Positions 9,153 through 55,472 of a DNA stretch of 64,000 nucleotides are shown piece after piece. The position numbers and the translations under genes were made by a program. The notes under the pieces were generated by a model. It saw only the letters and a list, made by a program, of their open reading frames with translations, was not told the origin of the DNA and did no database searches. Numbering within the stretch: position 1 is the stretch's first letter; each line of letters begins with the position of its first letter. The DNA comes from an uncultured Thermoleophilaceae bacterium (lineage in GTDB: Bacteria; Actinomycetota; Thermoleophilia; Solirubrobacterales; Thermoleophilaceae): NCBI GenBank assembly GCA_963825475.1, contig CAWGTC010000001.1:315742-379741 (forward strand). Direction: 5' to 3'.

Positions 9153-10997
9153 GTGATCGCCGGCGGGCTCGGGGCCGGCCACGGTCGGGTCCGAGACCCC
9201 GGCCGGGCCGCCGGACCGGAGGCCACCCATCGCGAGGCCGGAGCGCTGCGGCTGGCTTGGAACGGAGGCGCGGAGGCCCACGAGGCCGATGGCCTGCTCG
9301 TCGTACTCGACGGATTTCTGCTCGGGCCGATGGCCGATCTGGCGAACGTGGCCGAAGCCTGGCGCCGGGCGGGCAATTCGGTGACCGACCAGTTGCAGGG
9401 TGCCTTCACGATCGTGATCTGGGACGGACGCTCGCAGCGTGGCATCGTGGCTTGCGATCACTTCTCCCTCCGCGTCTGCCTCATGCACGGGACCGAGGGC
9501 GGGACGCTGCGCTTCTCGACCCATCTGCCGACGCTTCGGCGCATGCTCGCGAGCGATCCCGGGCCCGAGCCTCAGGTGATCGTGCCGTGGATCGCGCCCC
9601 AGTACCTCCAAGGTCACAAGACCATGCTGGCCGGAGTCGAGCGCGTCGGTGGTGCGCGATTGCTCGAGCTGAGCGCCGGCGGCTGGCGCCGGCGGCGCTA
9701 CTGGCGCCCGACGTGGAACGGCACGCTCGACGCGCCTCGCGCGGAGCTGGCCGCGATGCTTCGCAGCGAGCTGGCGCGCGCCGTGGCCCAGCGATTGGCC
9801 CCCCACACCCCAACGGGCACGATCCTCAGCGGCGGGCTGGACTCGTCCGTGGTCCTGGCCACCGCGGCCGCGCTCGAACCGCGCCCCGACCTCAGGGCCT
9901 ACTCGACCGTTTTCCCGGATTGGCCCGCGGCCGACGAGTCGCAGCGAATAGCTGCCACCACCGGTTTTCTCGACGTGCCCGCCTCACGGTTCGTAGTACG
10001 TCCCCAAGGTGCCTTGCGCATGGCCCTCGAGCAGCTGCGCGACTCGGGAACGGTTCCCGGCGGACCCGGCGGACTGGTCGAGCGTCCGGGCGTCCGGCAG
10101 GCTGCCGCCGATGGCGTGCACGTGCTATTCGACGGACAGGGGGGCGACGAGGTCTTCGGCAGCTCCCCGTACCTCCTTGCGGATCGCCTGCGCCGAGGCA
10201 ACGTCCGGGGCGCGGTCCGGCTGCTTCGGCGGACGGTGCCCTACCTGCGGCGGCGAACTTCCCAGGCTGCCGCCTGGACTCTCTTGCGCGACTTCGGTCT
10301 GAGCCCGGCGCTGCCTCGGCGGGCTCGCGTGGCGGTCGCGCGCCGGGGCGTCCGTGGCCATCACGCGCCCGAATGGCTCACCGCCGCCTCCGGCCGCACG
10401 CTTTCGGACGTGCACCAGCCGTGGCCTTGGATCGACGACGAGTCCGATGTGCCGCGGTGGTGGGCGTATCAGTCCTACCTGCTCACGGATCACGTAGAAG
10501 GCAGCGGCTTGGGTGAGCACATGTGGGAGCGCGCGGCTCCGTTCGGGATGCGCTCCGCTGCCCCGCTCTTCGATCTGGGCCTCGTGCAGCTCGTGCTGCG
10601 GATGCCTCCCGAAGCGACGTGGCAGCGGGTCGACCGCTCGCTGGCACGGGAGGCGGTGGCCGGCCGGCTCCCGGAGGCCGTGCGCAACAACCGCAGAAAG
10701 GCGAACATCGGGCCCTTCTACCTCGATCTGCTGACCGGGCCCGACAACACGATCGTGCGGGAGCTGCTTCTGGATCCGCGCGCGCGGGTACGCGGGTTCG
10801 TCGATCCCGTGTGGCTGGACCGGAGCCTCGCCCGCCTGCCGACGAGGGCGGACGCCGACTGGCTCATGTGGACCACCGTGGCCTGGCGTCTGGCGATGGC
10901 CGAGTGCTGGCTGCGCTGGCTCGAGGAGCCTGGCTTTCCCGAGTCCATGCTCGACCGGCCGGACCTCCCCGAGGTCTCCGCCCGCCCGGCGACCTAG
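9153..10997 (+). CDS. Lasso peptide cyclase (asparagine synthetase homologue, C protein)
   Basis: 614 aa with an Asn_synthase PP-loop (GTILSGGLDSSVV). The N-terminus (VIAGGLGAG) lacks the Cys2 nucleophile of true AsnB. Precursor, PqqD, B2 and ABC genes are adjacent. Confidence 0.85.
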   Translation: MIAGGLGAGHGRVRDPGRAAGPEATHREAGALRLAWNGGAEAHEADGLLVVLDGFLLGPMADLANVAEAWRRAGNSVTDQLQGAFTIVIWDGRSQRGIVACDHFSLRVCLMHGTEGGTLRFSTHLPTLRRMLASDPGPEPQVIVPWIAPQYLQGHKTMLAGVERVGGARLLELSAGGWRRRRYWRPTWNGTLDAPRAELAAMLRSELARAVAQRLAPHTPTGTILSGGLDSSVVLATAAALEPRPDLRAYSTVFPDWPAADESQRIAATTGFLDVPASRFVVRPQGALRMALEQLRDSGTVPGGPGGLVERPGVRQAAADGVHVLFDGQGGDEVFGSSPYLLADRLRRGNVRGAVRLLRRTVPYLRRRTSQAAAWTLLRDFGLSPALPRRARVAVARRGVRGHHAPEWLTAASGRTLSDVHQPWPWIDDESDVPRWWAYQSYLLTDHVEGSGLGEHMWERAAPFGMRSAAPLFDLGLVQLVLRMPPEATWQRVDRSLAREAVAGRLPEAVRNNRRKANIGPFYLDLLTGPDNTIVRELLLDPRARVRGFVDPVWLDRSLARLPTRADADWLMWTTVAWRLAMAECWLRWLEEPGFPESMLDRPDLPEVSARPAT

Positions 10998-12110: not shown

Positions 12111-12413
12111 GTGGGACCGACCAGTGTTGACCAGAGCACCCCCCGGCGGGTCACGATTCCCCAGCATGTCGTCTTTCGCAAGTTCGTGGACGAGACGGTG
12201 GTCCTCAACCTCGAATCCGGGTGCTACCACGGGCTCAATCCGATAGCCGGGTACATGCTCGAGCTGCTTGGTGAGATGGGCGATGTGAGTGCCGTGATCG
12301 AGCGGATCGTCGACGAGACCGGGGTCGCGGAGGACAAGGTGGGCGTCGACCTGCGTGCGCTCTGCGCCTCCCTCGCCGAGCGGGGTCTGATCGAGGTCGA
12401 TGCAGAGAGCTGA
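12111..12413 (+). CDS. PqqD-family RiPP recognition element (lasso B1)
   Basis: 100 aa: ...IPQHVVFRKFVDETVVLNLESGCYHGLNPIAGYMLELLGEMGDVSAVIERIVDETGVAEDKVGVDLRALCASLAERGLIEV. This is the classic PqqD pattern. Confidence 0.85.
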   Translation: MGPTSVDQSTPRRVTIPQHVVFRKFVDETVVLNLESGCYHGLNPIAGYMLELLGEMGDVSAVIERIVDETGVAEDKVGVDLRALCASLAERGLIEVDAES

Positions 12414-13353
12414 GCCCGGCGGCGACGCCGCGCTCGGCCTGCGCTTCACCGGAGACCCTCTTCCCGGCCTCGTGGCCGGAGTAGAGGGCGACCTGCCGTC
12501 GGTAGCCGTGGAGCGCGCCGGCGAGGCCGTGATCGACGAACGCTGGGCCGAGGCGACAGCTCCTGAAGTGATCTTCGCCCGCCCCAATCGTGACGGGACT
12601 CCCTTCCTTCGCATCGAGGCCGACGACTCTGCGGGGTACCGGGTGTCGGCCCGCGGCTACGGCACGCACCTGATCAGCGCGGACGGCAGTGACTGCGTCT
12701 CGAGCCTCCCGGGCGGACCGGCCTGGCGTGGACTGCGGCTGCTGGCCAGCCAGACCATTCCGCTCCTTACCACGCTCCGTGGCCGCGAGGTGATGCACGC
12801 GGCCGGGGCCGTGGTAGGTCAGCGCCTGATCGGCCTCGTAGCCCCATCCGGGACCGGGAAGAGCTCGACGGCGTGCAACCTGATCGCGCACGGCGGAAGC
12901 TTCTTCGCCGACGACGTGCTCGCCCTCGATCTCGTGGACGGCCGCGTTCGCGCCCATCCCGGCCCGCGACTAGTGAGCGTGCATCCGCGCGATCTCGGAG
13001 CGATTCCCGAAGGGCCCCGCGCGAGGATCGGCACACGGCTGGACCAGAGCAACAAGGTGCACCTCGAGCCGGCGGGCTTCCCCCGGGCGCTGCCGCTGCA
13101 CGCCATGGTCTTCCTCGACCGCCGTCCGGAGACGGCGACCACGACCATCTCGGCGCTCGACAACGTGGCCCCGCGACTGCTCGGCAATGCTTTCGTGTCC
13201 TACTTCGACGCTCCCGAGAGGCTGGCGCGGCAGCTCGAGATCGCGGGCACGCTGGCGGAGACCATCCCGCTGGCCAGCCTCGACATCGCGGCCGGGGACG
13301 GCGCCTCCACGGTCGCGCGCCGGGTCGGCGAATGGGTGGAGACCCTCCCGTGA
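12400..13353 (+). CDS. HPr kinase-like P-loop kinase (lasso precursor C-terminal Ser kinase type)
   Basis: 317 aa. GLVAPSGTGKSSTACNLIAHGGSFFADDVLAL resembles the HprK C-terminal domain (GxSGxGKS...ADD). It overlaps B1 by 14 nt and B2 by 4 nt. Confidence 0.8.
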   Translation: MQRAEPGGDAALGLRFTGDPLPGLVAGVEGDLPSVAVERAGEAVIDERWAEATAPEVIFARPNRDGTPFLRIEADDSAGYRVSARGYGTHLISADGSDCVSSLPGGPAWRGLRLLASQTIPLLTTLRGREVMHAAGAVVGQRLIGLVAPSGTGKSSTACNLIAHGGSFFADDVLALDLVDGRVRAHPGPRLVSVHPRDLGAIPEGPRARIGTRLDQSNKVHLEPAGFPRALPLHAMVFLDRRPETATTTISALDNVAPRLLGNAFVSYFDAPERLARQLEIAGTLAETIPLASLDIAAGDGASTVARRVGEWVETLP

Positions 13354-13787
13354 GCGGCGCGGCGCGTGCCGGCCTCGATCCGCTCCTGCGCGCGTCACCT
13401 CTGCCCCCGGTGGTTCGTGCCCGGATCGGCGCCGAGATTATCGCGACCTATGCCGAGGTCAGGTGGCGGATGCTCCGTGGCGATATCCGGGACGTCGTGG
13501 CCACGTTGCGCGGGGAGACCGACGATGTGCACGACCTCTCCGATGCGCGCCGGATGGGCATCCGTCTCGGACGGGCGGTGCGCCGGACGCTCGATCCGCT
13601 TCCGTTCGACTCGCGTTGTTTGATGCGCTCGCTCGTGCTGCAGCGCATGCTCGCGCGGCGGGGAGTCGTCTGCCGGCTCGTGATCGGCGTCCGCCCGGGG
13701 GAGACCCTCGAGGCCCATGCCTGGATCGAGCACGGGGGCCTGCCGTTGCTGCCCACGCTCGGCTATGAGCCACTCACGGTCCTCTGA
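13350..13787 (+). CDS. Lasso peptide leader peptidase B2 (transglutaminase-like Cys protease)
   Basis: GTG 13350 overlaps the kinase stop (GTGA). Sequence: ...FDSRCLMRSLVLQRMLARRGVVCRLVIGVRPGETLEAHAWIEHGGLPLLP. The Cys...His spacing is typical of McjB-like B2 proteins. This is the tail of track ORF 12873..13787. Confidence 0.85.
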   Translation: MSGAARAGLDPLLRASPLPPVVRARIGAEIIATYAEVRWRMLRGDIRDVVATLRGETDDVHDLSDARRMGIRLGRAVRRTLDPLPFDSRCLMRSLVLQRMLARRGVVCRLVIGVRPGETLEAHAWIEHGGLPLLPTLGYEPLTVL

Positions 13788-13788
13788 G

Positions 13789-15684
13789 TCAGCGGTATGC
13801 GGCGGCCTGCAGGTCGAACAGCTCGGCGTAGCGGCCGCCGAGCGCCACGAGCTGCTCGTGTGAGCCCTCCTCGACGATCGCGCCTTCGTGCAGGACGTAT
13901 ATGCGGTCGGCCGATCTGACGGTGGAGAAGCGGTGGGAGATCAGCAGCACGGAGCGTCCGCGGGCCAGGGCCTGGACGTACTCGAACAGCTCGTGCTCCG
14001 AGCGGGCGTCGAGCGACGCTGTCGGCTCGTCGAGCACCAGCAGGCGAGCCTCCCTGAAGAAGGCGCGCGCGAGCGCGATGCGCTGCCATTGGCCCAGCGA
14101 CAGGTCATACCCGCCCGTGAACTCCTTGCCCAGAAGCGTCTCGTAGCCCTGGGGCAGGCGTTCGAGATAGTCGTGGGCACCGGCCTGCTTCGCCGCCTCG
14201 ATGATCGCCTGCGTGTCCTCGACCGCCTCCGCTCTGCCGAACCCGATGTTCTCCCGCGCGGTGAGCTGATAGCGCACGAAATCTTGGAAGATCACGCCTA
14301 CGTGGCGCCTGAGCGCGCGCCGGTCGAGCGTGCGGATGTCGATGCCGTCCCACAGCACCCTGCCTTCCGTGGGCGTGAACAGCGCACCGAGCAGCTTGGC
14401 GAGCGTCGTCTTGCCTGAGCCGTTCTCCCCGACGAGGGCTACCACCTCCCCTGCGCCGATCCGCAACGACACGCCGTTCAGCGCCTTGTACTCGGCGTTG
14501 GGATAGGCGAAGTGCACGTTCTCCACGACGAGCTCGCTGAACGGCGCCACCTCCTCGAGGGGGGCGGAGGTGCGCTCGGAGGTCGCCGCCGGCGCCCGAG
14601 CGAGGAAGCGATGGAGGTCGCCAAGGAACAGGCTTGACTCGAAGAGCCGGCTGATGCCCTTGAACACCTGCTCGATGCGCGATCCCAGGAGGCGAATCGC
14701 GAGCACCGCGGCCCCTGCCTCCGCCAGACCGATCCGGTCCGAGAGCACGAACGAGATCAGCAGCGCGAACGCGGCGCTCGTGACCACCACTGTCGCGAGC
14801 GTCCCGGCCAGGGCAAGAAGCAGCCGGCGCCGGACATGGACGCGCAGGTCACGCAGGTAGTCCAGGTAGCTGCGATCCCAGCGGCGGCGAAGGATCTGGC
14901 CTAGGCCGAAGGCCCGCAGCTCCTTCGCCTCCTCACGTCCGATCAGCGTCTGGACGAGGTAGAAGCGCAACCGGGTGCCCGGGGTCTGCTCGACGTTGAA
15001 GCCGAACTCGATCTTCCCCGTCGCCCGGGAGAGGAGCCACAGCGGCAGCGCCGACGCGAACAGGATGGGCACCACGAGCGGCTCGATGATGACCAGGGCC
15101 ACGGTGAGCCCGACCGCCCCGAGGATGCCCCCAATTGTCGCGATCAGGCCCTGTGAAAGGGTCAGAGGCTGAAGCAGAGCGTTGGTCTGGACCCGCTGGA
15201 GGTCGTCGAAGAACTCGGGCGACTCGAAGGTCTCCAGGTCCACCGCCGTGGTCACGGAGAGCATGGAGTCGAGCGTCGAGCGTTGCACGTGCTCGCCGAG
15301 CATTCGCTGGGCAAGGGTCTGGAAGGAGCCGGCGAAGCTGCCGAGCGCGCCCGCGGCCACGAGGCCGATCAGCGGGGGCAGAGCATCGAGCACGGCGCCG
15401 TCCGACTGCGTGGTCTCGAGAATGGCCTCGAGCGCCAGCTTGCCGAGAAGGACTTGGACGCCGAGCAGCACGGCGACGAAGATCTGCGCCACGGCGCAGA
15501 GATCGAACAGCCGGGGATTCGCCTCGCGGGCCAGCTTCACCGCCGAGCGTGCGATACCCGGCAGGCTGCGAACCGTCCTGGGCCTCCCCTTCCCCGACAG
15601 GTAGTACTGCTGGCGGTCGAAGGGCTTCTGGTCGCTCTCTCCCTCCGCGCCTGACGGCGGCGGCTTCCCACTGTCGTCAGGCAT
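13789..15684 (-). CDS. ABC transporter, fused permease/ATPase (lasso exporter D type)
   Basis: Walker A is GENGSGKTT, the signature is LSLGQWQR, Walker B is LLVLDEPT, and 6 TM segments lie N-terminal. The start is trimmed to ATG 15684 (MPDDSGKPP...), which avoids overlap with the divergent gene at 15737. Confidence 0.85.
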   Translation of the reverse strand: MPDDSGKPPPSGAEGESDQKPFDRQQYYLSGKGRPRTVRSLPGIARSAVKLAREANPRLFDLCAVAQIFVAVLLGVQVLLGKLALEAILETTQSDGAVLDALPPLIGLVAAGALGSFAGSFQTLAQRMLGEHVQRSTLDSMLSVTTAVDLETFESPEFFDDLQRVQTNALLQPLTLSQGLIATIGGILGAVGLTVALVIIEPLVVPILFASALPLWLLSRATGKIEFGFNVEQTPGTRLRFYLVQTLIGREEAKELRAFGLGQILRRRWDRSYLDYLRDLRVHVRRRLLLALAGTLATVVVTSAAFALLISFVLSDRIGLAEAGAAVLAIRLLGSRIEQVFKGISRLFESSLFLGDLHRFLARAPAATSERTSAPLEEVAPFSELVVENVHFAYPNAEYKALNGVSLRIGAGEVVALVGENGSGKTTLAKLLGALFTPTEGRVLWDGIDIRTLDRRALRRHVGVIFQDFVRYQLTARENIGFGRAEAVEDTQAIIEAAKQAGAHDYLERLPQGYETLLGKEFTGGYDLSLGQWQRIALARAFFREARLLVLDEPTASLDARSEHELFEYVQALARGRSVLLISHRFSTVRSADRIYVLHEGAIVEEGSHEQLVALGGRYAELFDLQAAAYR

Positions 15685-15736
15685 CGAGGAGAGGATACGT
15701 CGAGGAGTCAGGAAGCTGAATGTAAGGTGCGCTCCC

Positions 15737-16486
15737 GTGAGCGCGCTGCATGTCGTCATCCTCGCTGCCGGCAAAGGCAGCCGCCTGGGCGCGCTCGGGG
15801 CCCAGAAGCCCAAGTGGCTGCTCGACGTCGGGGACCGGACTATCGCCGACCACCAGCTCGAGGGCCTGGAACGGGCGTCCGGCACGGTCGCGTCGGTGAG
15901 GGTGGTCACAGGTCACGCCCGCGAGGCCATCGACAGGTTTCTCGAGGCCGGCCGCGATGTCCAGGTGGTCCACAACATCGAGTACGCGCGCCTCAACAAC
16001 TGGTACTCGGTGCTGCTGGCGCTGCGGTCCATCACCGACCCTGATCCGCGCGTGGCGATCATCAACGGCGACCTCTTCGCGCGCGCGGACTGGATAGCCA
16101 AGTTTCTGGTCGACAGCACCGGCACTTCCTCCGAGTCGCTGATCGCCGTGGATACCCAGCGGCCCGTGACCGACGAGTCGATGAAGGTGGCCATGGACGG
16201 AGCCTCTCGACTGAGCGCGATCGGCAAGGAAGGCATCGTGAACCCCGTGGGGGAATACGTGGGCATGCTGATGGCGGCGGGATCGGTGCTAGAGGACTTC
16301 CGCACCGCACTGGAACGCTTCGAGCGCCAACCGGAGTCCGCGAATGAGTGGTACGAGAGCGCCGTGGGCGTCTCCGCCGCTGCGGGCACGGATTGGACGG
16401 TGTGGCCGACTCCCGACAGCCACTGGGTCGAGATCGACGACGATGCCGACCATTCGATCGCGCTGCGGATGAGCGAAAGTCTCTGA
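15737..16486 (+). CDS. MobA/LicC-like NTP-transferase (putative cytidylyltransferase)
   Basis: 249 aa with an N-terminal VVILAAGKGSRLG nucleotide-binding loop and an NNWYSVLLA motif, as seen in LicC/IPCT-like cytidylyltransferases. Confidence 0.7.
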   Translation: MSALHVVILAAGKGSRLGALGAQKPKWLLDVGDRTIADHQLEGLERASGTVASVRVVTGHAREAIDRFLEAGRDVQVVHNIEYARLNNWYSVLLALRSITDPDPRVAIINGDLFARADWIAKFLVDSTGTSSESLIAVDTQRPVTDESMKVAMDGASRLSAIGKEGIVNPVGEYVGMLMAAGSVLEDFRTALERFERQPESANEWYESAVGVSAAAGTDWTVWPTPDSHWVEIDDDADHSIALRMSESL

Positions 16487-30651: not shown

Positions 30652-32124
30652 ATGGCGACAGCGTCTGGCGTCCCCACTACGGGTCGCCGCGCCAAGGCGG
30701 CCCGGGGAACGGTCATCAACTCCGCGTTCCTGATCGGCCTGAACGCGCTCGCGCTGATCAAGGGCTTCGCTGTGGCCGGTTTCATCACGGTCTCCGACTA
30801 CGGAGTCTGGGGGCTCTTGGTCGTCGCGTTCACCTCGCTGTATGGGCTAGTGCAGATCGGCGTGAACGACAAGTACATCCAGCAGGACGCCGAAGATCAG
30901 GAGCACGCATTCCAGCAGGCGTTCACGCTCCAGCTCGCCTTGAGCTTGTTCTTCGTGGCGCTCATGGTCGTGATGATGCCGGTCTATGCGCTGGCCTATG
31001 GCAACTGGGAGATTCTGCTCCCGGGCTGGGCGCTGGCGCTCGCCATGCCCGCTAGCGCGTTTCAGGCACCGCTGTGGACCTTCTACAGGCGGATGGACTA
31101 CCTGAAGCAGCGGCGCCTTCAAGTGATCGACCCGGTCTTGAGCATCGTTGTGACACTCGGACTGGCTGCCGCAGGATTCGGCTACTGGTCGTTCGTAATT
31201 GGGACGATCTGCGGAAGTTGGGCCGCGGCAGTCATGGCGATACGGGCTTCTCCCTACAAACTCGCCCTCCGGTACGAGTCAGGCACTGTGCGCGAGTACG
31301 CGCGCTTCTCGGGCCCGTTGATGTTCCAGGGCGCCTGCGTGGCTGTGATCCAGTTCGTGCCGGTACTCACTGCCCAGCGCACGCTTGGAACCGCCGCCGT
31401 AGGTGCGATGGCGATCGCCAGCAACATCTCGAGGTACACGCTCAAGGTCGACCAGATCATCACGGGGACGCTCTATCCGGTGGTTTGTGCGGTCAAGGAC
31501 CGCCGGGACCTACTGCAAGAGGCGTTCCTGAAGTCGAATCGGCTGGGGCTGCTCTGGGCCGGCCCCACGGGCGTAGGCATCTTTTTGTTCGCGCCCGACC
31601 TGGTGCAGTTCGTGATCGGCTCTCAATGGCAAGAGGCCATCCCGATCATCCAGTCGCTCGGCATAGTCGCGGTGATCAACCAGATCGGCTTCAACTGGAC
31701 CGCCTTCTACCGGGCGATTGGCGATACGCGCCCGATCGCCGTGGGCGGTCTGGCCATGGCCTTGGGCGTAACGGGACTTGCCGTGCCGCTTCTCCTTGCC
31801 GAGGGACTCCAGGGGTACGCGGTTGGCATGGGCCTCGCGGCAACTGTCCTCCTCGCGGTCCGGATGGTCTATCTCCGACGCCTCTTTTCGCTCAGGCCGA
31901 TAGTCGGGAACGTCGCTCGGGGGCTCCTCCCGGTGGCGGTTGCGTTTACCGTCACAGGGGCCGCCCGGCTGCTTCTCTGGGGCGGCGAACGCGCGGAGGT
32001 TCAGGCCTGTCTTGAATTTGCCTTATTCGTGGCCATCGCGGGCGCCTTTACGGTGATCTCGGCACGCAGTCTGCTGGTCGAGTTCCGGGGCTACCTTCAG
32101 CGCCCGTCGGCCACGCCTGCCTAG
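30652..32124 (+). CDS. Polysaccharide flippase (Wzx / MOP superfamily)
   Basis: ATG 30652 lies 2 nt after the preceding stop. About 12-14 TM segments. The N-terminus TVINSAFLIGLNALALIKGF is typical of oligosaccharide flippases. Confidence 0.75.
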   Translation: MATASGVPTTGRRAKAARGTVINSAFLIGLNALALIKGFAVAGFITVSDYGVWGLLVVAFTSLYGLVQIGVNDKYIQQDAEDQEHAFQQAFTLQLALSLFFVALMVVMMPVYALAYGNWEILLPGWALALAMPASAFQAPLWTFYRRMDYLKQRRLQVIDPVLSIVVTLGLAAAGFGYWSFVIGTICGSWAAAVMAIRASPYKLALRYESGTVREYARFSGPLMFQGACVAVIQFVPVLTAQRTLGTAAVGAMAIASNISRYTLKVDQIITGTLYPVVCAVKDRRDLLQEAFLKSNRLGLLWAGPTGVGIFLFAPDLVQFVIGSQWQEAIPIIQSLGIVAVINQIGFNWTAFYRAIGDTRPIAVGGLAMALGVTGLAVPLLLAEGLQGYAVGMGLAATVLLAVRMVYLRRLFSLRPIVGNVARGLLPVAVAFTVTGAARLLLWGGERAEVQACLEFALFVAIAGAFTVISARSLLVEFRGYLQRPSATPA

Positions 32125-40946: not shown

Positions 40947-42041
40947 TCACCGAAACCGTTCGTAGGGATCCGCGTAGTCCCTGCTCAGGAGATCGAAATC
41001 CTCAAGCATCTCAAGCACCTCCTCCGTGGTGCGACACACAGGCCCCGGAGCCTCGGCCTCGAGGTCGAAGTAGAACCCCCGGACACCGTCGCGGTACTCC
41101 TCGAGGTCGTACGTGAAGAACACGATCGGCTTACCGGTGACGGCGAAGTCGAACATGGCTGACGAGTAATCGGTTATCAGCACGTCGGCGGCGAGGTAGA
41201 GGTCCCGGATGTCGGGATGGTCGGAGACGTTCCTCCCGACGGCCCCGAGGGCATTCCCGAGCTTGGACGCCAGCAGGTAGTGAAGTCGCAGGAGCAGAAG
41301 ATGGCTGTCACCCAGCTGCGCCGCCATGCGCTCGACGTCGAGCGTGAGCGAGAAACCGAGCCGACCATCGCGGTCCACCAGGTTGTCGCGCCACGTCGGG
41401 GCGTAGAGCACGGCCCGAACGTCGTCGGCGATCCCCAGCTCTGCCCGCACCCGCTGCCGGACTTCGGCGGCGTCCGGAGCGCTGAGGATGTCGTTCCGCG
41501 GGTAGCCGGTCTCGAGGATCTCGCCGTCGAAGCGAAACGCGCGGCGGAAGATCTCCGTGCTGAACGAGTTTTGCGAAACAAGGAAGTCCCACTTCTCGAA
41601 GTCCCTTGCCATCCGGTCGAGTCCCGAGCGGTTTTCCTTCCAGCGCGGGTTGTCGAACCCGATCCGCTTTAGCGGTGTGCCGTGCCAGGTCTGCAGATAT
41701 GTGGTGCCGTTCCGTCTCCTGAAGTTCCTCGGCATAGGAATGTTGGACACGACCTGACCGGCGCTTCCGACCTGGCGCAGGTACGGGAGGCTGTACGGCT
41801 CCACCGCGGTCACCCCGGCAGGCGCCTGGCGACCGGGGGAGGTGATCCAGACGGGCTCGTGCGGCGTGTTCCGCCGCGTGAGCTCTTCGTAGATCGCGCG
41901 GGGGTTGTCAGAGAACGCTCCGTTGAAGCTGTTGTAGAGGACCCGCCGCACCCGGGGCTTCCCAAGCGTCTGCAACGCCGGGGCGGCGGCTGCACGGGCG
42001 AGCCGCGATAGAAACGCGCCAGCTGGAGGGGCGCTAGGCAT
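40947..42041 (-). CDS. CDP-glycerol glycerophosphotransferase (TagB/TagF family), second copy
   Basis: LYNSFNGAFSDNPRAIYEEL, YLQTWHGTPLKRIGFDN, LYAPTWRDN and LITDYSSAMFDFAVTGKPIVFFTYDLEEYRD. It starts 3 nt after the stop of the nucleotidyltransferase gene. Confidence 0.8.
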   Translation of the reverse strand: MPSAPPAGAFLSRLARAAAAPALQTLGKPRVRRVLYNSFNGAFSDNPRAIYEELTRRNTPHEPVWITSPGRQAPAGVTAVEPYSLPYLRQVGSAGQVVSNIPMPRNFRRRNGTTYLQTWHGTPLKRIGFDNPRWKENRSGLDRMARDFEKWDFLVSQNSFSTEIFRRAFRFDGEILETGYPRNDILSAPDAAEVRQRVRAELGIADDVRAVLYAPTWRDNLVDRDGRLGFSLTLDVERMAAQLGDSHLLLLRLHYLLASKLGNALGAVGRNVSDHPDIRDLYLAADVLITDYSSAMFDFAVTGKPIVFFTYDLEEYRDGVRGFYFDLEAEAPGPVCRTTEEVLEMLEDFDLLSRDYADPYERFR

Positions 42042-42044: not shown

Positions 42045-43244
42045 TCATCCCCGTCCGCGCGCGATGACACTGGCCGGCGCCCACGCGTAACGGCCGACAA
42101 CCCTGATCGCGTGGCTGAGCCGGGCTGAAGTCATACGGGTTCGCGAGCCGCCGCGCAGCTCGGGCCGGCGCTCAAGCAGCACCTGGTCCGGGGGGAAGAT
42201 TCGGCGGCGGGCAAACGCACGGAGACCCCCTGAGGGGCTGAGGAGGCCGTCGACAAGCGAAATCTCAGCGCGGACCTGTTGGCGCGATCCCTCGCGCCAC
42301 GGATTGGCGAGTCGCACGGCTGCTCGCTCGCGACGGGCGAGCGGCCGGGCGGGGGCGATCAGAGAGCCGCGGGCAAGCCCCGCCATGGTTTCGGCATGCT
42401 CGGCGGCGGCGGCAAGCGCAGGGGCCAGTTCAGGATGACGCCCGGCGACCGTTCGGACCCCGGCCGCAGTCTCCCCTGGTCGACCCAGCGACGCCCACCA
42501 GGCCGCGACGTCGACCGTCTGCCGCAGCCCCGCAAAGCCGTCCCGCGCGAGGAACAACAGCAGGAAGGACAGTTCGTCCGTGGGGAGCAGCCGCCGCGAA
42601 CCGTCTTCGTTGATGGTTGCGCGGTCCAGAGCCGCCTGAGCGAAAGTCGACTCATACCAATGCACGCGCCAGTGCAGCTCGAGCGGGGGCAGGTCCGGGT
42701 GGTCCAGCACGCGGTGGAGCTCGGGCAGGCCGTCGATAGGTCGCGACCAGTCTGGCTCTGTCCAGCCGAGCCCTCCGGCGAGATCGACTGCTCGATCGAG
42801 CCCAGCGCCGGGAACCAGCAGATCGATGTCGGAAGACTGGCGCGCCCCGAAGTTGCCGTAGATGGAGTCGGCAAGCGCCGTCCCCTTGAGTGCAACTACC
42901 GCAAGCCCGTCCGCCTCGAGCGTGCGCGCCAGCCGCCCCGTAAGCGCGTGCTGGATCATCCCGCGGTGGCGAGCGATCATTCGGGCGCCGCCGAGCCACT
43001 CAGCGAGTGGCTCGGTCAGCTCGATAGCCGGATCGTCGAGAAGTCGCCCGCCTAGCGTCGTGATCATCCGCTGGGCCGCAAGCAGTCCGAGCACGCGTTC
43101 CAAATCGGCGACCGCCGCCAGCCTGTGGACCTCAGCAACCCGGTCGGGTGTCGGCTGAGCGACCGCGCGTATGAGGGCCACCACCAGCGCGTGCTCGGGT
43201 GTCACGGCCGCAGCGTACGCGCTCAGGAGGGCTGCGCGTCGCAA
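42045..43244 (-). CDS. NTP_transf_5-type uncharacterised nucleotidyltransferase
   Basis: 399 aa: ...VVALKGTALADSIYGNFGARQSSDIDLLVPGAGLDRAVDL..., a Pol-beta-like G[SN]...D.D signature as in the family co-occurring with HprK-like kinases. TTG start. Confidence 0.65.
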   Translation of the reverse strand: MRRAALLSAYAAAVTPEHALVVALIRAVAQPTPDRVAEVHRLAAVADLERVLGLLAAQRMITTLGGRLLDDPAIELTEPLAEWLGGARMIARHRGMIQHALTGRLARTLEADGLAVVALKGTALADSIYGNFGARQSSDIDLLVPGAGLDRAVDLAGGLGWTEPDWSRPIDGLPELHRVLDHPDLPPLELHWRVHWYESTFAQAALDRATINEDGSRRLLPTDELSFLLLFLARDGFAGLRQTVDVAAWWASLGRPGETAAGVRTVAGRHPELAPALAAAAEHAETMAGLARGSLIAPARPLARRERAAVRLANPWREGSRQQVRAEISLVDGLLSPSGGLRAFARRRIFPPDQVLLERRPELRGGSRTRMTSARLSHAIRVVGRYAWAPASVIARGRG

Positions 43245-43343: not shown

Positions 43344-43874
43344 ATGTCCTCTATCGACAACACGCCAGCTGCTCGGAAGGTGGTCTACGACCAGCCTCAG
43401 GTCCGAGACTACGGGTCCCTGGTCACGCTCACGGCGGATTTCGATGTGCACTTTGTCGGTTCAGTCGCGAAGATTGTGACGCTCGCCACCGTGAGTTCCC
43501 CGCTGGCCGTTGGCGGCGGCGCTACTGGCCCGGGCGGTGGTGGTGGCAGTGCGGGCAGCCTCGCGCCATCGAATCTGACTCCGGACACCGGAGGAGTGCT
43601 CTCCGACATCGCGCAAGCCGATGGCGTTCCCGAGGGCGGGACCGAAACTCCGGCCACGATTGACAACGGCACGGGGGTGCTTGCAGACGGCCCGGCTGGG
43701 GGCGGGGAGGCGGCCGGATCGGGCTCGATCGGCGGCGGCGCGGGCGCGGGCGGCGGCGGTGAGGGCGGGAGGCTCCCGTTCACCGGCTATGCGGCTGCGA
43801 CTGTTGCCGCGCTCGGAGCGGCCTTCACCGGCGCCGGCGTAGCGGTGCGCGCCCTGCTGCGCCGCCGCAGCTAG
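43344..43874 (+). CDS. Gly-rich LPXTG (LPFTG) surface-anchor protein with a lasso-leader-like N-terminus
   Basis: GGGAG lies 7 nt upstream of the ATG. Sequence: MSSIDNTPAARKVVYDQPQVRDYGSLVTLTADFDVHFVG..., then Gly-rich low complexity, then GGRLPFTGYAAATVAALGAAFTGAGVAVRALLRRRS*. The N-terminal 31 aa align with the leaders of A1 and A2. There is no classical Sec signal. Confidence 0.7.
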   Translation: MSSIDNTPAARKVVYDQPQVRDYGSLVTLTADFDVHFVGSVAKIVTLATVSSPLAVGGGATGPGGGGGSAGSLAPSNLTPDTGGVLSDIAQADGVPEGGTETPATIDNGTGVLADGPAGGGEAAGSGSIGGGAGAGGGGEGGRLPFTGYAAATVAALGAAFTGAGVAVRALLRRRS

Positions 43875-43892: not shown

Positions 43893-44852
43893 GTGACGCG
43901 CGGTGAGTCGCCCGAGTGGCGGGGCAGTGCGTTCGGGCTGAGTCTCTCCGGCGCCTTCGTTGCGCCCGGGTTGGCAGGTGAGACGCGTTCGTCGAGTTCA
44001 GCGTTCGCGACCGAGCTGGCGTTGGTTGCTCGGGGAGATCTCGGCGAGGGATGGGCTCCGGTCGAGGTCGAGCTGCTCTACGAGCAGGTGCTTCCCAATG
44101 GCAGATTTGCGATCCGCCGCCACCCGGAGCGTGGCTACCGACTGGAGCACACGTACTACGGACAGTTCTGGGTCGCGACGGACGGGGCCCGAATCTCGTG
44201 TGCTCCCGAGGATTTGCCGAACTGGCTGTGGCAGCGCTTCCTGGTTGGCCAGGTGCTGCCGCTGGCGTCACTGTTGCAGGAGTACGAGGTGCTTCATGGC
44301 AGCGCAGCTGCGATCGACGGGTCTGCCGTGCTGGTGATGGGCGCCAGCGGGGCCGGGAAATCTTCCGTGTGCCTGCACCTGGTGGCCGGCGGCGCGACGT
44401 TCCTCACCGACGACGTGGCTGCCCTGGAGCTACGCGACGGGGCCGTCCTGACGCATCCGGGTCCGGGGTTGGCGAGCCTCGACGAAGACGAGCTCGCACG
44501 CCTGCCACCCGAGCAGACGGGAGCCTGGGAACGGCTCGGGGTTTCCGACGGGGAGGTCCGACTCATGGTGACCGGCGCCGGACACCAGGCTCTTCCGGTC
44601 GCCGCGATCTACCTTCTCACCCATCGCCCCGAAGCTCGCCGGCTCGAGATCGTCGCTACGGCGGCGGCTTGGCCCGAGGCTCTGCTGGGCGGCACGTTCA
44701 ATGCCTACCTGCGGGATGCGGGGCGTCTGGTGCGCCAGCTGGAGGTGGCGGGTCGTCTCGCGGAGACAGTGCCCTTGCGAGAGGTGACGGTGCCCGAGGG
44801 TGTGGGGGCGGGCGCTGTGGCCGACGCCATCGCCTCCTCGTTCAGGCCCTGA
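43893..44852 (+). CDS. HPr kinase-like P-loop kinase, second copy
   Basis: 319 aa. LVMGASGAGKSSVCLHLVAGGATFLTDDVAALELRDGAVLTHPGPGLASL aligns with 12400-13353 (GLVAPSGTGKSSTACNLIAHGGSFFADDVLALDLVDGRVRAHPGPRLVSV). Confidence 0.8.
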   Translation: MTRGESPEWRGSAFGLSLSGAFVAPGLAGETRSSSSAFATELALVARGDLGEGWAPVEVELLYEQVLPNGRFAIRRHPERGYRLEHTYYGQFWVATDGARISCAPEDLPNWLWQRFLVGQVLPLASLLQEYEVLHGSAAAIDGSAVLVMGASGAGKSSVCLHLVAGGATFLTDDVAALELRDGAVLTHPGPGLASLDEDELARLPPEQTGAWERLGVSDGEVRLMVTGAGHQALPVAAIYLLTHRPEARRLEIVATAAAWPEALLGGTFNAYLRDAGRLVRQLEVAGRLAETVPLREVTVPEGVGAGAVADAIASSFRP

Positions 44853-45038: not shown

Positions 45039-45431
45039 TCAGCTCAGAGGCTCGTACGGATCCCGCAGCTCCGGAAACATCGGGAAGTGCTTTCGGTTGC
45101 GGGTCATGAGGTCCACGCCAAGGCGTTCGGCTGTAGCTGCGATCACGTAGTCGACCAGATCGATTCCCGGGTGGCTCCGCACGAACCGTGAAGCTAGAGC
45201 CCCGGCTCGCTCGCCGAGATCATCATCCACCTCCAGCCAGTCGATCGCTTCCATCAGCTTCCGCGTTCTCGGGCGCTCGTCCGGACGCATCCCGGCAAGG
45301 AGCTCCACTTTGGTCAGGACAGACGCTGACAGCCTCTCGCCGCCTGTTTCCAGGCCAGTGATGAGCTGGCGCGCGCGTTCATCGCCGCGGAGGTGGTCGA
45401 TCAACACGGATGTGTCGAGCAAAGCGGTCAC
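45039..45431 (-). CDS. vapC: PIN-domain toxin VapC
   Basis: 130 aa. LLDTSVLIDHLRG... carries the first acidic residue of the PIN fold, with further acidic residues downstream (MEAIDWLEVDDD, GIDLVDYVIAA). It overlaps the antitoxin gene by 4 nt. Confidence 0.85.
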   Translation of the reverse strand: MTALLDTSVLIDHLRGDERARQLITGLETGGERLSASVLTKVELLAGMRPDERPRTRKLMEAIDWLEVDDDLGERAGALASRFVRSHPGIDLVDYVIAATAERLGVDLMTRNRKHFPMFPELRDPYEPLS

Positions 45432-45679
45432 CGCTCGAGCCGCGCACCCAGGCCCGGGCGACGAATCCGCTCCACGTAGTGCTCGCCGTCGAAGTCACGG
45501 TCGGCCCAGGCGCCGAAGCTCTCCCCAAGAGCGGCGCTTCGCTCCGGGCCCTGCATGCGGTAGGTGGCCGAGAGCGATCGCCGCACGAGCTCGGCCAGCC
45601 CGAGCCCCGTCTTCTCCGACTCGCGCTTCAGCGTCTCATACTGCGCATCCGTGAGCGTGATCTGGGTCCGATGAGCCAT
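45428..45679 (-). CDS. vapB: Ribbon-helix-helix antitoxin (VapB-like)
   Basis: 83 aa. MAHRTQITLTDAQYETLKRESEKTGLGLAELVRRSL shows an RHH beta-strand plus two helices. Confidence 0.75.
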   Translation of the reverse strand: MAHRTQITLTDAQYETLKRESEKTGLGLAELVRRSLSATYRMQGPERSAALGESFGAWADRDFDGEHYVERIRRPGLGARLER

Positions 45680-52410: not shown

Positions 52411-54480
52411 ATGCCCGTCGACGAATACGTGGGCGGCCTGGTGTTGTTCGCGATCACCGCGGGATCGGCGCTCGGTACCGCCGCGTTGGTGGTGCGCCGG
52501 CGGCTGGTGCACCTGGCCGGAAGCGAGGCCGTCCTGGCCGGGGCCCTCGTGGCCAGCGCCGTGCTGATCGCGGAGCACCTGCTGCCCGGGCTCGTGGGAC
52601 TGCTGTCGCGCGCGAGCGCGGCCGTGTGCGCGCTCGCCATTCTCACTGCCGCGGCGGTGCTGCTGCCGCGGGCCGGTGCGGGCGGCGGCGAAACGGGGCC
52701 GCCCACCGCCCGGAGCGGGAGGCTCCCGTCGTGGGCGATGGCCGGCGTGGCTCTGGTCCTGCTCGCAAGCGCCACGGCCGCCGCCGTCTGGTCGAGCTCG
52801 GTCACGGCGTCCACGGACGTGGACACGCTCACCTTCCACCTGCCCAACATCGCCCGGTGGATCCAGACGGGCACGTTCTGGCGGGTCGACCAGTTCACGC
52901 CGCTGCTGGCCAACGGCAACTACCCGCACAACGGCGACGTGATCTTCCTCGCCGCGGTTCTGCCTTGGGACAGCGACGCTTTCGTCCGCGCCCTCGGCGT
53001 GCCCTTCGTGGCGGTGGCGGGCCTCTCCGTCTACGCCATCGCCGTGCGCCTCGGCTCGGCGCGCGCCACGGCGGCCCTGTTCGCCACCCTCTTCGCCTCG
53101 ATCCCCATCGTGTCCTACGCCAGCCACGAGGGCGCGAAGACCGATCCGGTGATGCTGGCGTGCTTCGGCGCGGGCCTGCTCTTCATGCTGCGCCACCTCG
53201 AGTCGCGGCGGATGTCGGACCTCGTGCTCGCGGGCCTGGGGCTGGGCCTGGCCTTCGGCACCAAGTGGTACGGGGTGTCGAGCGTGGCGGCCGTCGGCGC
53301 CCTGTGGATCGCCCTGTGGCTGTGGGACCGGCGCCCGACAGGCGAGCTGTTGCGCAGCGCCGGTGTGCTGGCCGGGGTGGGCGCGCTGGCCGGAGGCTTC
53401 TGGCTGCTGCGCAACTGGGTCGAGTCCGGCAACCCGGTGGCTCCCACCCGGGTGGCTGCGGGCGGGCTCGAGATCTTCGATGCCCCGACGGACTTCGTAC
53501 GCGAGTGCGGCGGCTACACGGTGGCCCACTACGTGACCGATCCCGGCATCTGGCGGGAGTACATCCTGCCCGCCTACCGGGTCACGTACGGGCTGCCGGG
53601 CCTGTTGCTCGTGGCCGGCTGGGTACTTGGCGTTGCCGCGCTGGCGCGGGGACGCTCGCCTGTGCCCCGGGCACCGCTGTTCCTTGCCCTTGCGGCGGTG
53701 CTCCTGGCCGTCGTGTACTCCATCACTCCCTACAGCGCGCTGGGCCTCGAGGGCCAGCCCGCCGGAGTCGGGGCCAACACCCGCTGGCTTCTGCCCGCCT
53801 TCCTCGTGGCCGCCCCCCTCGCGGCCTGGGCGGCCACGCAACTGCCCAGGGTCCGGCTGCTGCTCGAACTGGCCGCGGTGGTGGCGGTTGCGGACGGGGT
53901 GCGCCGCGGGTTCTCGGACCCGGCCGGCGAGGTGGCAGTGGCCGGCCTCGCGCTCGCGGCTGCGGCGGGCGCGGTGCGAGCGCTCCGCATGCTCCTGCGC
54001 CGGGCCGGCACGCCCGACCGGGCGGCCTGGGCCGTTGTGGGCGCGGTGGTGGTGGCGGCGCTCGCCGTGGTGGGCCACCAGCGCCAGCAGACCTTCTACG
54101 ACGAGCGCTACCGGGTCACCGATCCCGTGGCGGCCTGGTTCGCCGAACGGGCGCCGACTGATCGCCGCGTGGCCCTGGCCGGCGTGTGGGGCACTCAGGT
54201 GATCTCGCCCGTGCTGCCGGCCTTCGGACCACGGCTCGGCAACGAGGTGGCCTTCGCGGGCGAATACGTGCGGGGACAGCTGCGCGAGTATGAGCGCCGG
54301 TCGGAGTTCCTGGGCGCCGTGGACCGCGGCGGCTACGACCTGCTGGTGGTGGGCCGCGACGGCTACGGCGAGTGCCAGGTGCCGGGGCGAGAGGGCGACG
54401 AGGACGCGTGGGTCCAGGGGGCCGGCTACGAGAAGCTGGCCGAGAGCCGGTATCTCACCCTGTACAGGGTCCCGGCTTAG
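52411..54480 (+). CDS. Integral membrane GT-C-like glycosyltransferase (ArnT/PMT-like) with C-terminal soluble domain
   Basis: 689 aa. It starts immediately after the previous stop. Multiple TM segments are followed by a roughly 150-aa C-terminal domain. Confidence 0.5.
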   Translation: MPVDEYVGGLVLFAITAGSALGTAALVVRRRLVHLAGSEAVLAGALVASAVLIAEHLLPGLVGLLSRASAAVCALAILTAAAVLLPRAGAGGGETGPPTARSGRLPSWAMAGVALVLLASATAAAVWSSSVTASTDVDTLTFHLPNIARWIQTGTFWRVDQFTPLLANGNYPHNGDVIFLAAVLPWDSDAFVRALGVPFVAVAGLSVYAIAVRLGSARATAALFATLFASIPIVSYASHEGAKTDPVMLACFGAGLLFMLRHLESRRMSDLVLAGLGLGLAFGTKWYGVSSVAAVGALWIALWLWDRRPTGELLRSAGVLAGVGALAGGFWLLRNWVESGNPVAPTRVAAGGLEIFDAPTDFVRECGGYTVAHYVTDPGIWREYILPAYRVTYGLPGLLLVAGWVLGVAALARGRSPVPRAPLFLALAAVLLAVVYSITPYSALGLEGQPAGVGANTRWLLPAFLVAAPLAAWAATQLPRVRLLLELAAVVAVADGVRRGFSDPAGEVAVAGLALAAAAGAVRALRMLLRRAGTPDRAAWAVVGAVVVAALAVVGHQRQQTFYDERYRVTDPVAAWFAERAPTDRRVALAGVWGTQVISPVLPAFGPRLGNEVAFAGEYVRGQLREYERRSEFLGAVDRGGYDLLVVGRDGYGECQVPGREGDEDAWVQGAGYEKLAESRYLTLYRVPA

Positions 54481-55472
54481 AGCCAGCCACGCATGCGGAA
54501 GAAGCCGAGCATGCTGGCGAGCAGCACCACCATCGCGGCGACGATCGCCCAGAAGGCCGCGGTGCCGCCCTCGCCGGGAACGCCGACGTTCATCCCCCAG
54601 ATGCTGGCGATCAGCGTGAGGGGCAGGATCACCACGCTGAAGGCGGTGAGCACCCGCAGCACGTCGTTCACCCGGTGCGCGAGCACGGACTCGTTGGTGT
54701 CCTCGAGCGCCTCGATCACCTCCTTGTAGTTCTCGAGCATGTCCCAGATGCGCTCGGAGGCGTCGACGATGTCGTCGAAGTAGATGTCGATGTCCTCCGC
54801 CATGTAGCGCTGCTTGGTGCGCTCGAGATCGCGCAGCACCGGCCGCTGCGGGCGGATGATCTTGCGGAAGTTGATGATCTCCTGCTTGGCGTTGGAGATG
54901 TCGCGCACGACCTCCTCCGAGCGCCCCAGGAAGATGTCCTCCTCGATCCGCTCGAGCTTGTTGCCCATCTTGCGCAGCATCGGGAAGCAGTAGTCGAACG
55001 AGTCGTCGACGATCTTGTAGAGCAGGTAGCCGGGTCCCTTGGAGAGCAGGGCGTCGCGCATCTCCTCCGACGCGCTGCAGCGCTCGAACAGGTAGTCCAC
55101 CGGCGGAATCGGCCGGTTGGGCAGCGTGATCAGGAAGTCCGGCCCGACGAAGATGTCCAGCTCGGCCGCGTTGAGCCGGCCCACCGCCTTGTCGAATACC
55201 GGGAAGTGGAGGACGATGAACAGGTAGTCGTCGTACTCGTCGATCTTCGGGCGCTGGTTGCGCGAGGTCACGTCCTCGTAGTCGAGGGGATGGAACTCGA
55301 AGTGCTCCTCGAGCCATGCGCGGTCGATAGGGCCGGGCCGCTCGATGTTGATCCACCGGAGGCCGTGGGCCTCGATGGTCTCTACGTTGGGCTCAGGAGC
55401 GGCGTGAGCGGGATCCGCGTCGGACCCGACGCGCGGGCCCTTGCGAAGGCGTGGACGTGGAATGCTCGGCAT
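54477..55472 (-). CDS. corA: CorA-family magnesium/cobalt transporter
   Basis: 331 aa with two C-terminal TM helices and the GMN signature (LIASIWGMNVGVPGEG). Confidence 0.9.
   Translation of the reverse strand: MPSIPRPRLRKGPRVGSDADPAHAAPEPNVETIEAHGLRWINIERPGPIDRAWLEEHFEFHPLDYEDVTSRNQRPKIDEYDDYLFIVLHFPVFDKAVGRLNAAELDIFVGPDFLITLPNRPIPPVDYLFERCSASEEMRDALLSKGPGYLLYKIVDDSFDYCFPMLRKMGNKLERIEEDIFLGRSEEVVRDISNAKQEIINFRKIIRPQRPVLRDLERTKQRYMAEDIDIYFDDIVDASERIWDMLENYKEVIEALEDTNESVLAHRVNDVLRVLTAFSVVILPLTLIASIWGMNVGVPGEGGTAAFWAIVAAMVVLLASMLGFFRMRGWL

Follow-up and report, generated by a model that had tools for sequence, protein, structure and literature searches.

The stretch of 64,000 nucleotides analysed here, referred to as the window, derives from contig CAWGTC010000001.1 of an uncultured Thermoleophilaceae bacterium (assembly GCA_963825475.1). 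At 43344..43874 on the forward strand it contains a gene, termed A*, which encodes a 176-amino-acid protein that combines a lasso-type leader with a sorting-type anchor. A gene for an HprK-type kinase, K2, begins 18 nt 3' of A* (43893..44852, forward strand), and the gene for an NTP_transf_5 (PsmN-type) nucleotidyltransferase, N, is divergent from A* (42045..43244, reverse strand). About 30-32 kb from A*, the window also carries a lasso peptide cluster with the gene of an Asn-synthase-like lasso cyclase, C (9153..10997, forward strand), and two lasso precursor genes, A1 (11080-11247) and A2 (11251-11415), which are encoded on the same strand and have the same leader type according to their sequences and to profile tests.

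Anatomy of A* and resemblance of its leader to lasso precursors

The open reading frame (ORF) of A* starts with ATG at 43344, with a Shine-Dalgarno-like AGGGAG 6 nt upstream, and includes the stop codon TAG at 43872-43874. The assignment is based on the ORF, its homologues and synonymous-only codon differences; coordinates and sequence are those given in an initial annotation, which was made from the DNA alone. The product begins with the leader MSSIDNTPAARKVVYDQPQVRDYGSLVTLTA (residues 1-31, 43344..43436), which is followed by a core-like segment, DFDVHFVGSVAKIVTLATVSSPLAV (residues 32-56, 43437..43511), recognised by its column conservation and a predicted helix. An 87-residue Gly-rich, acidic and Lys/Arg-poor linker (residues 57-143, 43512..43772) leads to the motif LPFTG (residues 144-148, 43773..43787), and the protein ends with 20 uncharged residues, a predicted transmembrane helix, and RALLRRRS (residues 149-176, 43788..43871). 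The Gly-rich stretches and LPFTG had been annotated correctly, whereas the end of the protein had been described as 21 hydrophobic residues and RRRS and actually consists of 20 uncharged residues followed by R-A-L-L-R-R-R-S. In the AlphaFold2 (AF2) model, built with 55 family sequences, the N-terminus is ordered but non-globular, a helix spans residues 26-50 with falling confidence, residues 51-147 are disordered (predicted local distance difference test, pLDDT, about 50) and a confident helix covers residues 148-174 (pLDDT 86-93). The latter and the family pattern are the basis for the predicted transmembrane helix.

Scans of the window protein and of family members revealed no Pfam or NCBIfam family covering A*, and simple promoter and terminator scans found nothing. 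The contrast between the G+C contents of third and second codon positions (GC3 minus GC2) is weak, which is why a simple composition-based gene picker passed over the gene.

Canonical lasso leaders follow the arrangement YxxPxL...T(-2) (PMC10368454). A* has YxxPx[LIV] at -17 to -12 and Thr at -2 with the same spacing, namely Y15(-17), P18(-14), V20(-12) and T30(-2), in addition to D22, G24, S25, L26 and A31(-1). With a profile built from A1 and A2 only, A* scored 14.4 bits; 10000 shuffled versions of its first 60 residues all stayed below this value (maximum 11.9). A profile of five leaders, comprising A1, A2 and three lasso leaders of other loci, gave 21.8-26.1 bits for the first seven family members and a maximum of 12.7 in 14000 shuffles. 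When only the three foreign precursors were used to scan all 1104 stop-to-stop six-frame segments of the window (118,891 amino acids), A* ranked first with 25.0 bits, followed by A1 (21.6), A2 (17.2) and, far behind, the next segment (4.6). The curated 20-position model NF033521 (lasso_leader_L3) aligned with residues 15-31 of A* at 13.8 bits (E 0.045); its cut-off of 19 bits was reached neither by A* nor by A1 (15.4 bits), and it matched 31 of 55 family members at E<=1.

The initial annotation had aligned the N-terminus of A* with the leaders of A1 and A2 and had named three results that would speak against its reading: a motif match no better than that of shuffled sequences, a conserved unit starting downstream of residue 35, and a signal peptide revealed by a different start codon. 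None of these was obtained. The match lies far above chance (14.4 bits compared to a maximum of 11.9), the leader is among the best-conserved parts of the family, and the sole longer start, GTG at 43314, would add MYRGLHREPR, which is no signal peptide. Furthermore, the alignment of the homologues begins at ATG 43344.

The core itself does not resemble that of a lasso peptide. Its positions 1-9 read D F D V H F V G S, with no Asp or Glu at positions 7-9 as annotated before, and the consensus of 69 family representatives at positions 7-9 is V/G/S. Given the canonical leader, A* might be an atypical lasso precursor, in which an unusual ring at the new N-terminus would produce a giant, lasso-headed, membrane-anchored protein, and clusters with a cyclase are indeed adjacent to A* in two related loci (L001 and L002; related loci carry L numbers and family entries P numbers) and about 30 kb off in the window. 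However, no cyclase was found near A* in L005, L006, L009 and L010. The lasso class is characterised by a short precursor of about 35-60 amino acids together with a cyclase, whereas A* has 176 residues, is 3-4 times longer than known precursors and lies about 30-32 kb from the cyclase gene of the window, which the A* module does not require elsewhere. The missing acidic residue at core positions 7-9 and the absence of a cyclase in several loci exclude a lasso fold, and we regard this explanation as highly improbable.

The A* family and its C-terminal anchor region

A first word-indexed search identified six relatives of A*, and a word-indexed search with the N-terminal profile yielded only one chimeric fragment. 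In an exhaustive profile search, 59 N-terminal columns were compared with 1.84 billion cluster representatives of a library clustered at 50% identity, which returned 78 matches at E<=1e-3 and 35 at E<=1e-10. At least 55 full-length representatives share one architecture, and their clusters are less than 50% identical to each other. This same combination of leader and LPXTG-type anchor is what the initial annotation had suggested looking for in homologues. Nearly all matches are 110-200 amino acids long, after removal of two false positives. These are P0051, in which ten copies of the eukaryotic kringle repeat CYTQPRARDYRGLVNVT match the family leader profile at E 5e-7, and P0073, a large repeat protein; the former indicates that the short leader motif alone can yield repeat-driven false positives. 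The N-terminal family profile also recovered the true short lasso precursors P0064, P0079 and P0082 from the 1.84 billion proteins, which ties lasso precursors and A* proteins together from the side of the family. Another entry, P0039 (382 amino acids), contains a leader-like motif, PYxxPxLxDHGxxxxxTAE..., in five or six tandem copies and a C-terminal part that by eye resembles an intramolecular-chaperone (peptidase S74-like) domain. It may represent another, different reuse of the lasso-type leader.

In family members, the leader is followed by a conserved segment of roughly 22 residues and a low-complexity linker, after which come L[PA]F[TS]G, 20 residues without charge, an Arg and a basic tail; leader and anchor are the best-conserved parts. 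Among 69 representatives, P and G of the leader are present in 69/69, Y and D in 68/69, T(-2) in 67/69, L and the V/I column in 66/69 each and A(-1) in 60/69. Within the anchor, L, F and G of LPFTG do not vary, and R169 is almost invariant. The post-leader segment defines two main subtypes and reads DFDLxFVGSVAKxVTMAAVSxP in subtype a and [AS]xHLLMGAxxxxDLSFSSP in subtype b. Conserved codons differ mostly synonymously; in the anchor, for instance, the comparison of the window with L001 gave 16 synonymous and 5 amino-acid changes.

On the basis of these sequence comparisons, the A* gene is real and under purifying selection, and it belongs to an undescribed conserved family in Solirubrobacterales-like soil actinobacteria. 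This removes the alternative, raised in the initial annotation, that A* is a relic left without function after a lasso precursor gene had fused with a surface-protein gene, and likewise the possibility of a spurious ORF in high-GC DNA. While the weak GC3 minus GC2 contrast and the absence of a Pfam or NCBIfam family would fit either of them, the 78 profile matches with about 55 full-length members of one architecture, the selective conservation of leader and anchor, the mostly synonymous codon differences, the conserved gene neighbourhood (see below) and the AGGGAG 6 nt before the ATG leave both with hardly any probability. Source databases attach no name to the family proteins. Full-text literature searches turned up no account of an anchored protein that carries a lasso-type leader, and searches combining lasso with LPXTG, RiPP (a peptide made by the ribosome and then modified post-translationally) with sortase, or Solirubrobacterales with lasso returned nothing relevant. 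The family entries P0011, P0029, P0017 and P0037 are frameshifted or read through. P0011 (394 amino acids) continues from A* into the K2 kinase, whereas the other three lose the anchor. These entries probably stem from errors of assembly or gene calling in the linker, which is Gly-rich and high in GC.

The C-terminus of A* has the three parts of a sorting signal, i.e. the motif, a hydrophobic stretch and a basic tail. All 56 full-length members compared contain L[PA]F[TS]G, as LPFTG in 50, LAFTG in three and LPFSG in three. The alternation between Pro and Ala matches the motifs used by actinobacterial sortases. Across the family, the preceding linker is 38-110 residues long and contains 38% Gly, 10% Pro, 9.8% Asp plus Glu and 2.8% Lys plus Arg, with a mean net charge of -5.3. 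In the family member of L009 (9470-9994), the Gly-rich linker is replaced by (P-I/L-D)n repeats (PIDPIDPIDPIDPIDPLDPID...), which suggests that the linker is selected as an extended acidic spacer and not for glycine as such.

At the other end of the protein, the leader Tyr is preceded by a median of 7.5 residues. The best Kyte-Doolittle window of 15 residues after the leader scores about 1.5-1.8 in subtype a and about 1.1 or lower in subtype b. A hidden, family-wide signal peptide in the post-leader segment was considered and rejected, as the segment is not hydrophobic in subtype b. Together with the GTG at 43314, which adds none, the short pre-leader extension and the non-hydrophobic subtype b bear out the earlier statement that A* has no recognisable N-terminal signal peptide.

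Neighbouring genes and genomic context

K2 is assigned to the HprK-type kinases by Pfam Hpr_kinase_C and TIGR04352. It is a paralogue of K1, the kinase within the lasso cluster (12400..13353, forward strand), with 35% identity over the full length. In contrast, K2 shares 57-59% identity with the kinases encoded after the family genes of L001 and L003, which themselves are only 30-38% identical to in-cluster kinases. By sequence, the K2-type kinases are thus an orthologous group set apart from the in-cluster K1 type. The motif H-x14-G-x2-G-x-G-K-S-x15-D-D is intact in K2 and has the same H-G-G-G-K-S-D-D spacing as BsfK from Bradymonas sediminis (Duan et al. 2023, PMC10368454). A* has one of the features expected of a substrate of an HprK-type RiPP kinase, a co-encoded kinase with an intact catalytic motif. 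The AF2 model of K2 (pLDDT 92.7) had HprK/P and PEPCK as best folds. A RiPP recognition element (RRE) of its own was considered for K2 and is not supported, since the model matched only these two folds. The assignment of N rests on PF14907 (8.7e-28); a DID metal-binding motif is present, and a comparison with solved structures gave no match to the N protein. Directly downstream of K2, a gene pair at 45039-45679 on the reverse strand encodes a PIN-domain and a ribbon-helix-helix protein (VapBC-like toxin-antitoxin).

Neighbourhoods were compared in about 14 sampled long loci, mostly from soil metagenomes of related organisms, so that counts of neighbourhoods do not represent independent events. 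L005, a Solirubrobacterales metagenome-assembled chromosome, was the sole locus obtained from a profile search of genome contigs, and a metagenome scan gave three loci, two of which had already been found otherwise. A kinase gene lies directly 3' of A* in the window, L001, L003, L005, L009, L010, L011 and the P0005 and P0006 contigs; in L006 the kinase comes after a PqqD gene, and P0011 is the read-through fusion of A* and kinase. The adjacency of A* and kinase is kept in at least ten loci. N adjoins A* in the window, L005, L006, L009, L010 and L011 and lies nearby in L001 (seven loci). In L006, a single-strand operon contains genes for a HEAT-repeat protein, N, A*, PqqD, a K2-type kinase and B2, a leader peptidase. 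This contig shows no cyclase and no other leader-bearing ORF, and A* therefore takes the precursor slot of the operon. In the P0067 contig, which belongs to subtype b, genes for an ATP-binding cassette (ABC) protein, a permease, PqqD, kinase and B2 are divergent from A*, while in L001 and L002 a full lasso cluster lies directly beside A*. By contrast, L005, L009 and L010 have A*, K2 and N and no B1 (the PqqD-type protein), B2 or C within 10 kb. It follows that the invariant core consists of A* and K2, usually with N, and that RRE and peptidase genes sometimes adjoin the A* module and are sometimes found elsewhere. A HEAT_2-repeat neighbour occurs in four loci (L001, 10304-11296; L005, about 11477-12505; L006, 680-1711; L010, 11017-12006) and has no counterpart in the window (no tblastn match).

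One suggestion of the initial annotation was that the leader recruits the RRE protein or the kinase to a wall-anchored protein. K2 and N, neither of which it had mentioned, lend support to this by their position 18 nt 3' of and divergent from A*, respectively, as does the operon of L006. The suggestion is supported, and the interpretation of the initial annotation as a whole partly so.

In the window, the genes that could provide these functions belong to the lasso cluster. B1 (12111..12413, forward strand; NF033530 at 1.9e-9) encodes the only PqqD-type RRE and B2 (13350..13787, forward strand, start codon GTG at 13350; NF033537 at 8.1e-18) the only lasso leader peptidase of the window; the positions of A1, A2 and the PqqD gene are as annotated before. 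B1 is 41% identical to the PqqD protein of L006 and B2 47% identical to the B2 of that locus. Judging from sequence, B1 is probably the leader-binding partner of A*, common to A1 and A2, and as the window has a single B1/B2 pair, A* would share both with A1 and A2 if it uses them. K1 is presumed to be the kinase for A1 and A2. A LuxR-type regulator (11693-12088) and an ABC exporter (13789..15909, reverse strand) complete the lasso cluster; orthologues of the exporter lie directly divergent beside A* in L001 and L003 (87% and 81% identity). B1 and K1 overlap by 14 nt (12400-12413), and the stop codon of K1 and the start codon of B2 share GTGA (13350-13353), which suggests translational coupling of RRE, kinase and peptidase. 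After TA, the predicted cores of A1 and A2 begin with NNGQPVFVD and NNNIPQFVD, respectively, so that core residue 1 is Asn in both; both precursors end with GDDDNLS. Asp9 is the likely ring partner by sequence, and Asn at position 1 and a ring of 9 residues would be uncommon among lasso peptides. The precursors in L001 and L002 begin with Leu or Ala.

This arrangement raises the question of whether A* acts on the lasso pathway itself, as a decoy or feedback regulator whose leader competes with A1 and A2 for B1 and B2 or sequesters them at the membrane and thereby tunes lasso output or immunity. The single B1/B2 pair of the window would allow this, A* abuts lasso clusters in L001 and L002, and its leader fits the lasso leader profile better than those of A1 and A2. 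Nevertheless, the A* family has its own kinase lineage, L005, L009 and L010 contain N and K2 but lack C, B1, B2 and a precursor within 10 kb, L006 has no cyclase, and the conserved post-leader segment and the anchor would be superfluous in a decoy. We therefore consider such a role very unlikely.

In all long loci (the window at 16-42 kb, L005, L009, L010, L004 and L007), the A* module lies inside a cell-surface glycopolymer cluster with genes for Wzy, flippase, GT1, GT2 and GT4 glycosyltransferases, WecG, Bac_transf and CDP-glycerol glycerophosphotransferases. Common flanks are DAGK and metallo-beta-lactamase genes on one side and CorA and threonine synthase genes on the other. The glycopolymer cluster of the window, about 26 kb in length (about 16000-42041), lies between the lasso cluster and the A*/K2 module. 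It contains Wzy_C (20860-22266), a flippase (30514-32124), several GT2 and GT4 genes, many methyltransferase genes and two CDP-glycerol glycerophosphotransferase genes (26525-27697 and 40947-42041). Since lasso cluster and A* are directly adjacent in L001, the cluster of the window looks like an insertion or rearrangement. Two PMT-family (protein O-mannosyltransferase-like) membrane glycosyltransferases (52411-54480 and 55451-56845) flank CorA, and a PMT_2 gene is also found near the A* module in L009. Enzymes of this family may bear on the glycosylation of exported Ser/Thr-rich proteins such as A*. Elsewhere in the window, at 2927-6228, two large ORFs (641 and 476 amino acids) have no Pfam family, and the coding strand is ambiguous in this region due to long ORFs of high GC3 on both strands (2927-4852, forward; 2948-4765, reverse).

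Proposed maturation of A* and its meaning

We propose, with slightly better than even confidence, that A* is a leader-guided substrate that would be phosphorylated, probably glycosylated on the phosphate, probably trimmed of its leader and then displayed on the cell envelope. From sequence and from analogy to described pathways, we infer the enzymatic steps, the modified residue, the removal of the leader, export and sortase anchoring as follows.

In the cytoplasm, the leader (residues 15-31) would dock A* to K2, assisted by B1 where this is present, for which BsfA, BsfK and BsfB1 provide the precedent. Lasso kinases of the HprK type modify the linear precursor while it still bears its leader, and not the mature peptide. 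BsfK phosphorylates an internal core Ser; the reaction depends on the leader, and the RRE protein B1 strongly accelerates it (PMC10368454). K2 would then phosphorylate a Ser or Thr of the post-leader segment, at core position 9, 15 or 20, and not the C-terminal Ser. In A*, the candidate residues are S40, T46 and S51/S52. Ser or Thr occupies these candidate positions, which were chosen from the sequences, in 62%, 80% and 80% of the members, respectively, and a Pro follows two residues past the last in 81%. The initial annotation had pointed to the C-terminal Ser as the residue phosphorylated by lasso kinases. This Ser is present in A*, but the last residue is Ser in only 10 and Thr in six of 56 members and neither in the remaining 40, and the C-terminal Ser was hence rejected as the kinase target of the family. 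The 16 members with Ser or Thr still exceed a background of 13% (binomial P about 0.002, with sequences that are not independent), and the C-terminal Ser may have been inherited or may serve as a secondary site.

In the next step, N would add a hexose to the phosphate, as PsmN does on pseudomycoidin; PsmN, which belongs to NTP_transf_5, is needed for the addition of one or two hexoses to the phosphoserine (PMC6993621). B2, together with B1, would subsequently cut off the leader after T30-A31. A macrolactam would not form, as core positions 7-9 contain no acidic residue. T(-2) and A(-1), by which the peptidase recognises its substrate, are nearly invariant, and this favours genuine removal of the leader. 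The acidic, Lys/Arg-poor remainder would be translocated with no Sec signal while the C-terminal helix and the Arg tail keep hold of it, and a sortase would probably transfer A* to peptidoglycan by cleavage between Thr and Gly of LPFTG. The modified N-terminal peptide would finally be presented on a flexible envelope stalk, in the context of a cell-surface glycopolymer locus. According to the positive-inside rule, an Arg-rich tail should stay cytoplasmic, and the bulk of A* must consequently be translocated non-classically. Two candidate routes are the adjacent ABC exporter, which lies divergently beside A* in L001, L003, L004 and in the contig of P0067, and N-tail translocation of an acidic, unfolded chain.

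Several observations weigh against this proposal. N-terminal lengths and hydropathy reveal no N-terminal Sec signal in any family member, and neither the 64-kb window nor any fetched locus contains a sortase gene. The curated anchor models (Pfam PF00746, NCBIfam LPXTG) do not match the window protein at E<=1, and PF00746 (Gram_pos_anchor) matches only two of 55 family members weakly (best E 0.04). As a sortase substrate, A* is supported by its tripartite C-terminus and neither by a Sec signal nor by the curated models. Moreover, none of the Ser/Thr columns among the post-leader candidates is invariant, with 62-80% at best, and the K2 model has no RRE-like domain, which makes direct leader binding by K2 less certain. 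B1 and B2 of the window are 30 kb away from A*, and L005, L009 and L010 indicate that removal of the leader may not be universal.

Part of this evidence would equally fit a protein that stays in the cell. A* could be a membrane-tethered cytoplasmic scaffold or regulator, whose leader is never removed and serves as a permanent dock for K2, N and possibly B1. Its N-terminus would remain cytoplasmic and organise or regulate the glycopolymer or lasso machinery, and LPFTG would merely be part of a conserved transmembrane region. The lack of a Sec signal and of sortase genes, the poor matches to anchor models and the absence of B1 and B2 within 10 kb in L005, L009 and L010 are all in line with this, as is the conservation of the transmembrane region in sequence beyond plain hydrophobicity. 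However, such a tail-anchor topology would place four or five Arg outside the cell, contrary to the positive-inside rule, and it would leave the near-invariant peptidase recognition site T(-2)/A(-1) unexplained. B2 is encoded in the same operon in L006 and beside A* in the P0067 contig, LPFTG and LAFTG both occur and mirror the variants of actinobacterial sortase motifs, and the extended acidic, Lys/Arg-poor linker resembles a wall-spanning stalk. On balance, we regard the scaffold as a serious but rather doubtful alternative.

A bolder possibility, which appears unlikely to us, is that A*, K2 and N prime a protein-linked envelope glycopolymer. K2 and N would place a phospho-sugar on a Ser or Thr of membrane-tethered A* at the cytoplasmic face. 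The surrounding glycosyltransferases and TarF-like glycerophosphotransferases would extend it, and the product would be exported and joined to peptidoglycan at LPFTG. If this were true, a RiPP leader would direct the formation of a wall-anchored 'proteo-teichoic acid', with the A* anchor replacing undecaprenyl phosphate as carrier.

Under the favoured interpretation of A* as a leader-guided envelope protein, its system would by analogy work like the tailoring half of the phosphorylated or glycosylated lasso pathways of paeninodin, pseudomycoidin and Bsf. The substrates of paeninodin (PadeA/PadeK) and pseudomycoidin (PsmA/PsmK/PsmN) have the same type of leader (YxxP...T-2), a kinase of the HprK family and an NTP_transf_5/PsmN-type enzyme are encoded beside the leader-bearing substrate, and the split B1 (PqqD) and B2 (transglutaminase-core peptidase) as well as an ABC exporter likewise occur in some A* loci. 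In contrast, A* substrates are 120-200 amino acids long instead of about 40-55, lack the ring-forming Asp or Glu and, in L005, L006, L009 and L010, a cyclase, and carry a disordered linker followed by an LPFTG membrane or wall anchor, while most members lack the C-terminal Ser that is phosphorylated by PadeK and PsmK. The Bsf system is similar in that an internal core Ser near the leader junction is phosphorylated in a leader-dependent and RRE-accelerated manner and that the cluster contains an N gene (PMC10368454). BsfA is nevertheless a true lasso precursor with Gly1, Asp8 and a cyclase, and its leader has Ile at -2 (PMC10368454) instead of the Thr found in 67 of 69 A* representatives. With the LPXTG surface proteins of Gram-positive bacteria, A* shares the tripartite C-terminus after a low-complexity, Gly/Pro-rich, stalk-like segment; the Sec signal, a folded passenger domain and a nearby sortase gene are missing in the A* family. 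NF033521, the 'lasso RiPP family leader peptide-containing protein', describes the leader only and not the architecture of leader plus anchor.

RiPP leaders are usually regarded as handles on small, secreted precursors of natural products. Here, a lasso handle is kept under selection, together with a kinase, N and in some loci RRE and peptidase, on a protein that is built like a wall-anchored stalk. For genome mining this calls for caution, as searches for leader motifs and lasso rules pick up A* genes, which do not encode lasso peptides. What would be new is the application of RiPP leader-guided maturation to an envelope protein, as suggested by the sequences. If this is true, machinery of the lasso type has been co-opted to mature a structural protein of the envelope, a substrate of the sortase type can be brought to the surface although it lacks a Sec signal, and HprK-type RiPP kinases have protein substrates. 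With three to five genes, A* and its partners offer a compact and testable system in the poorly studied class Thermoleophilia.

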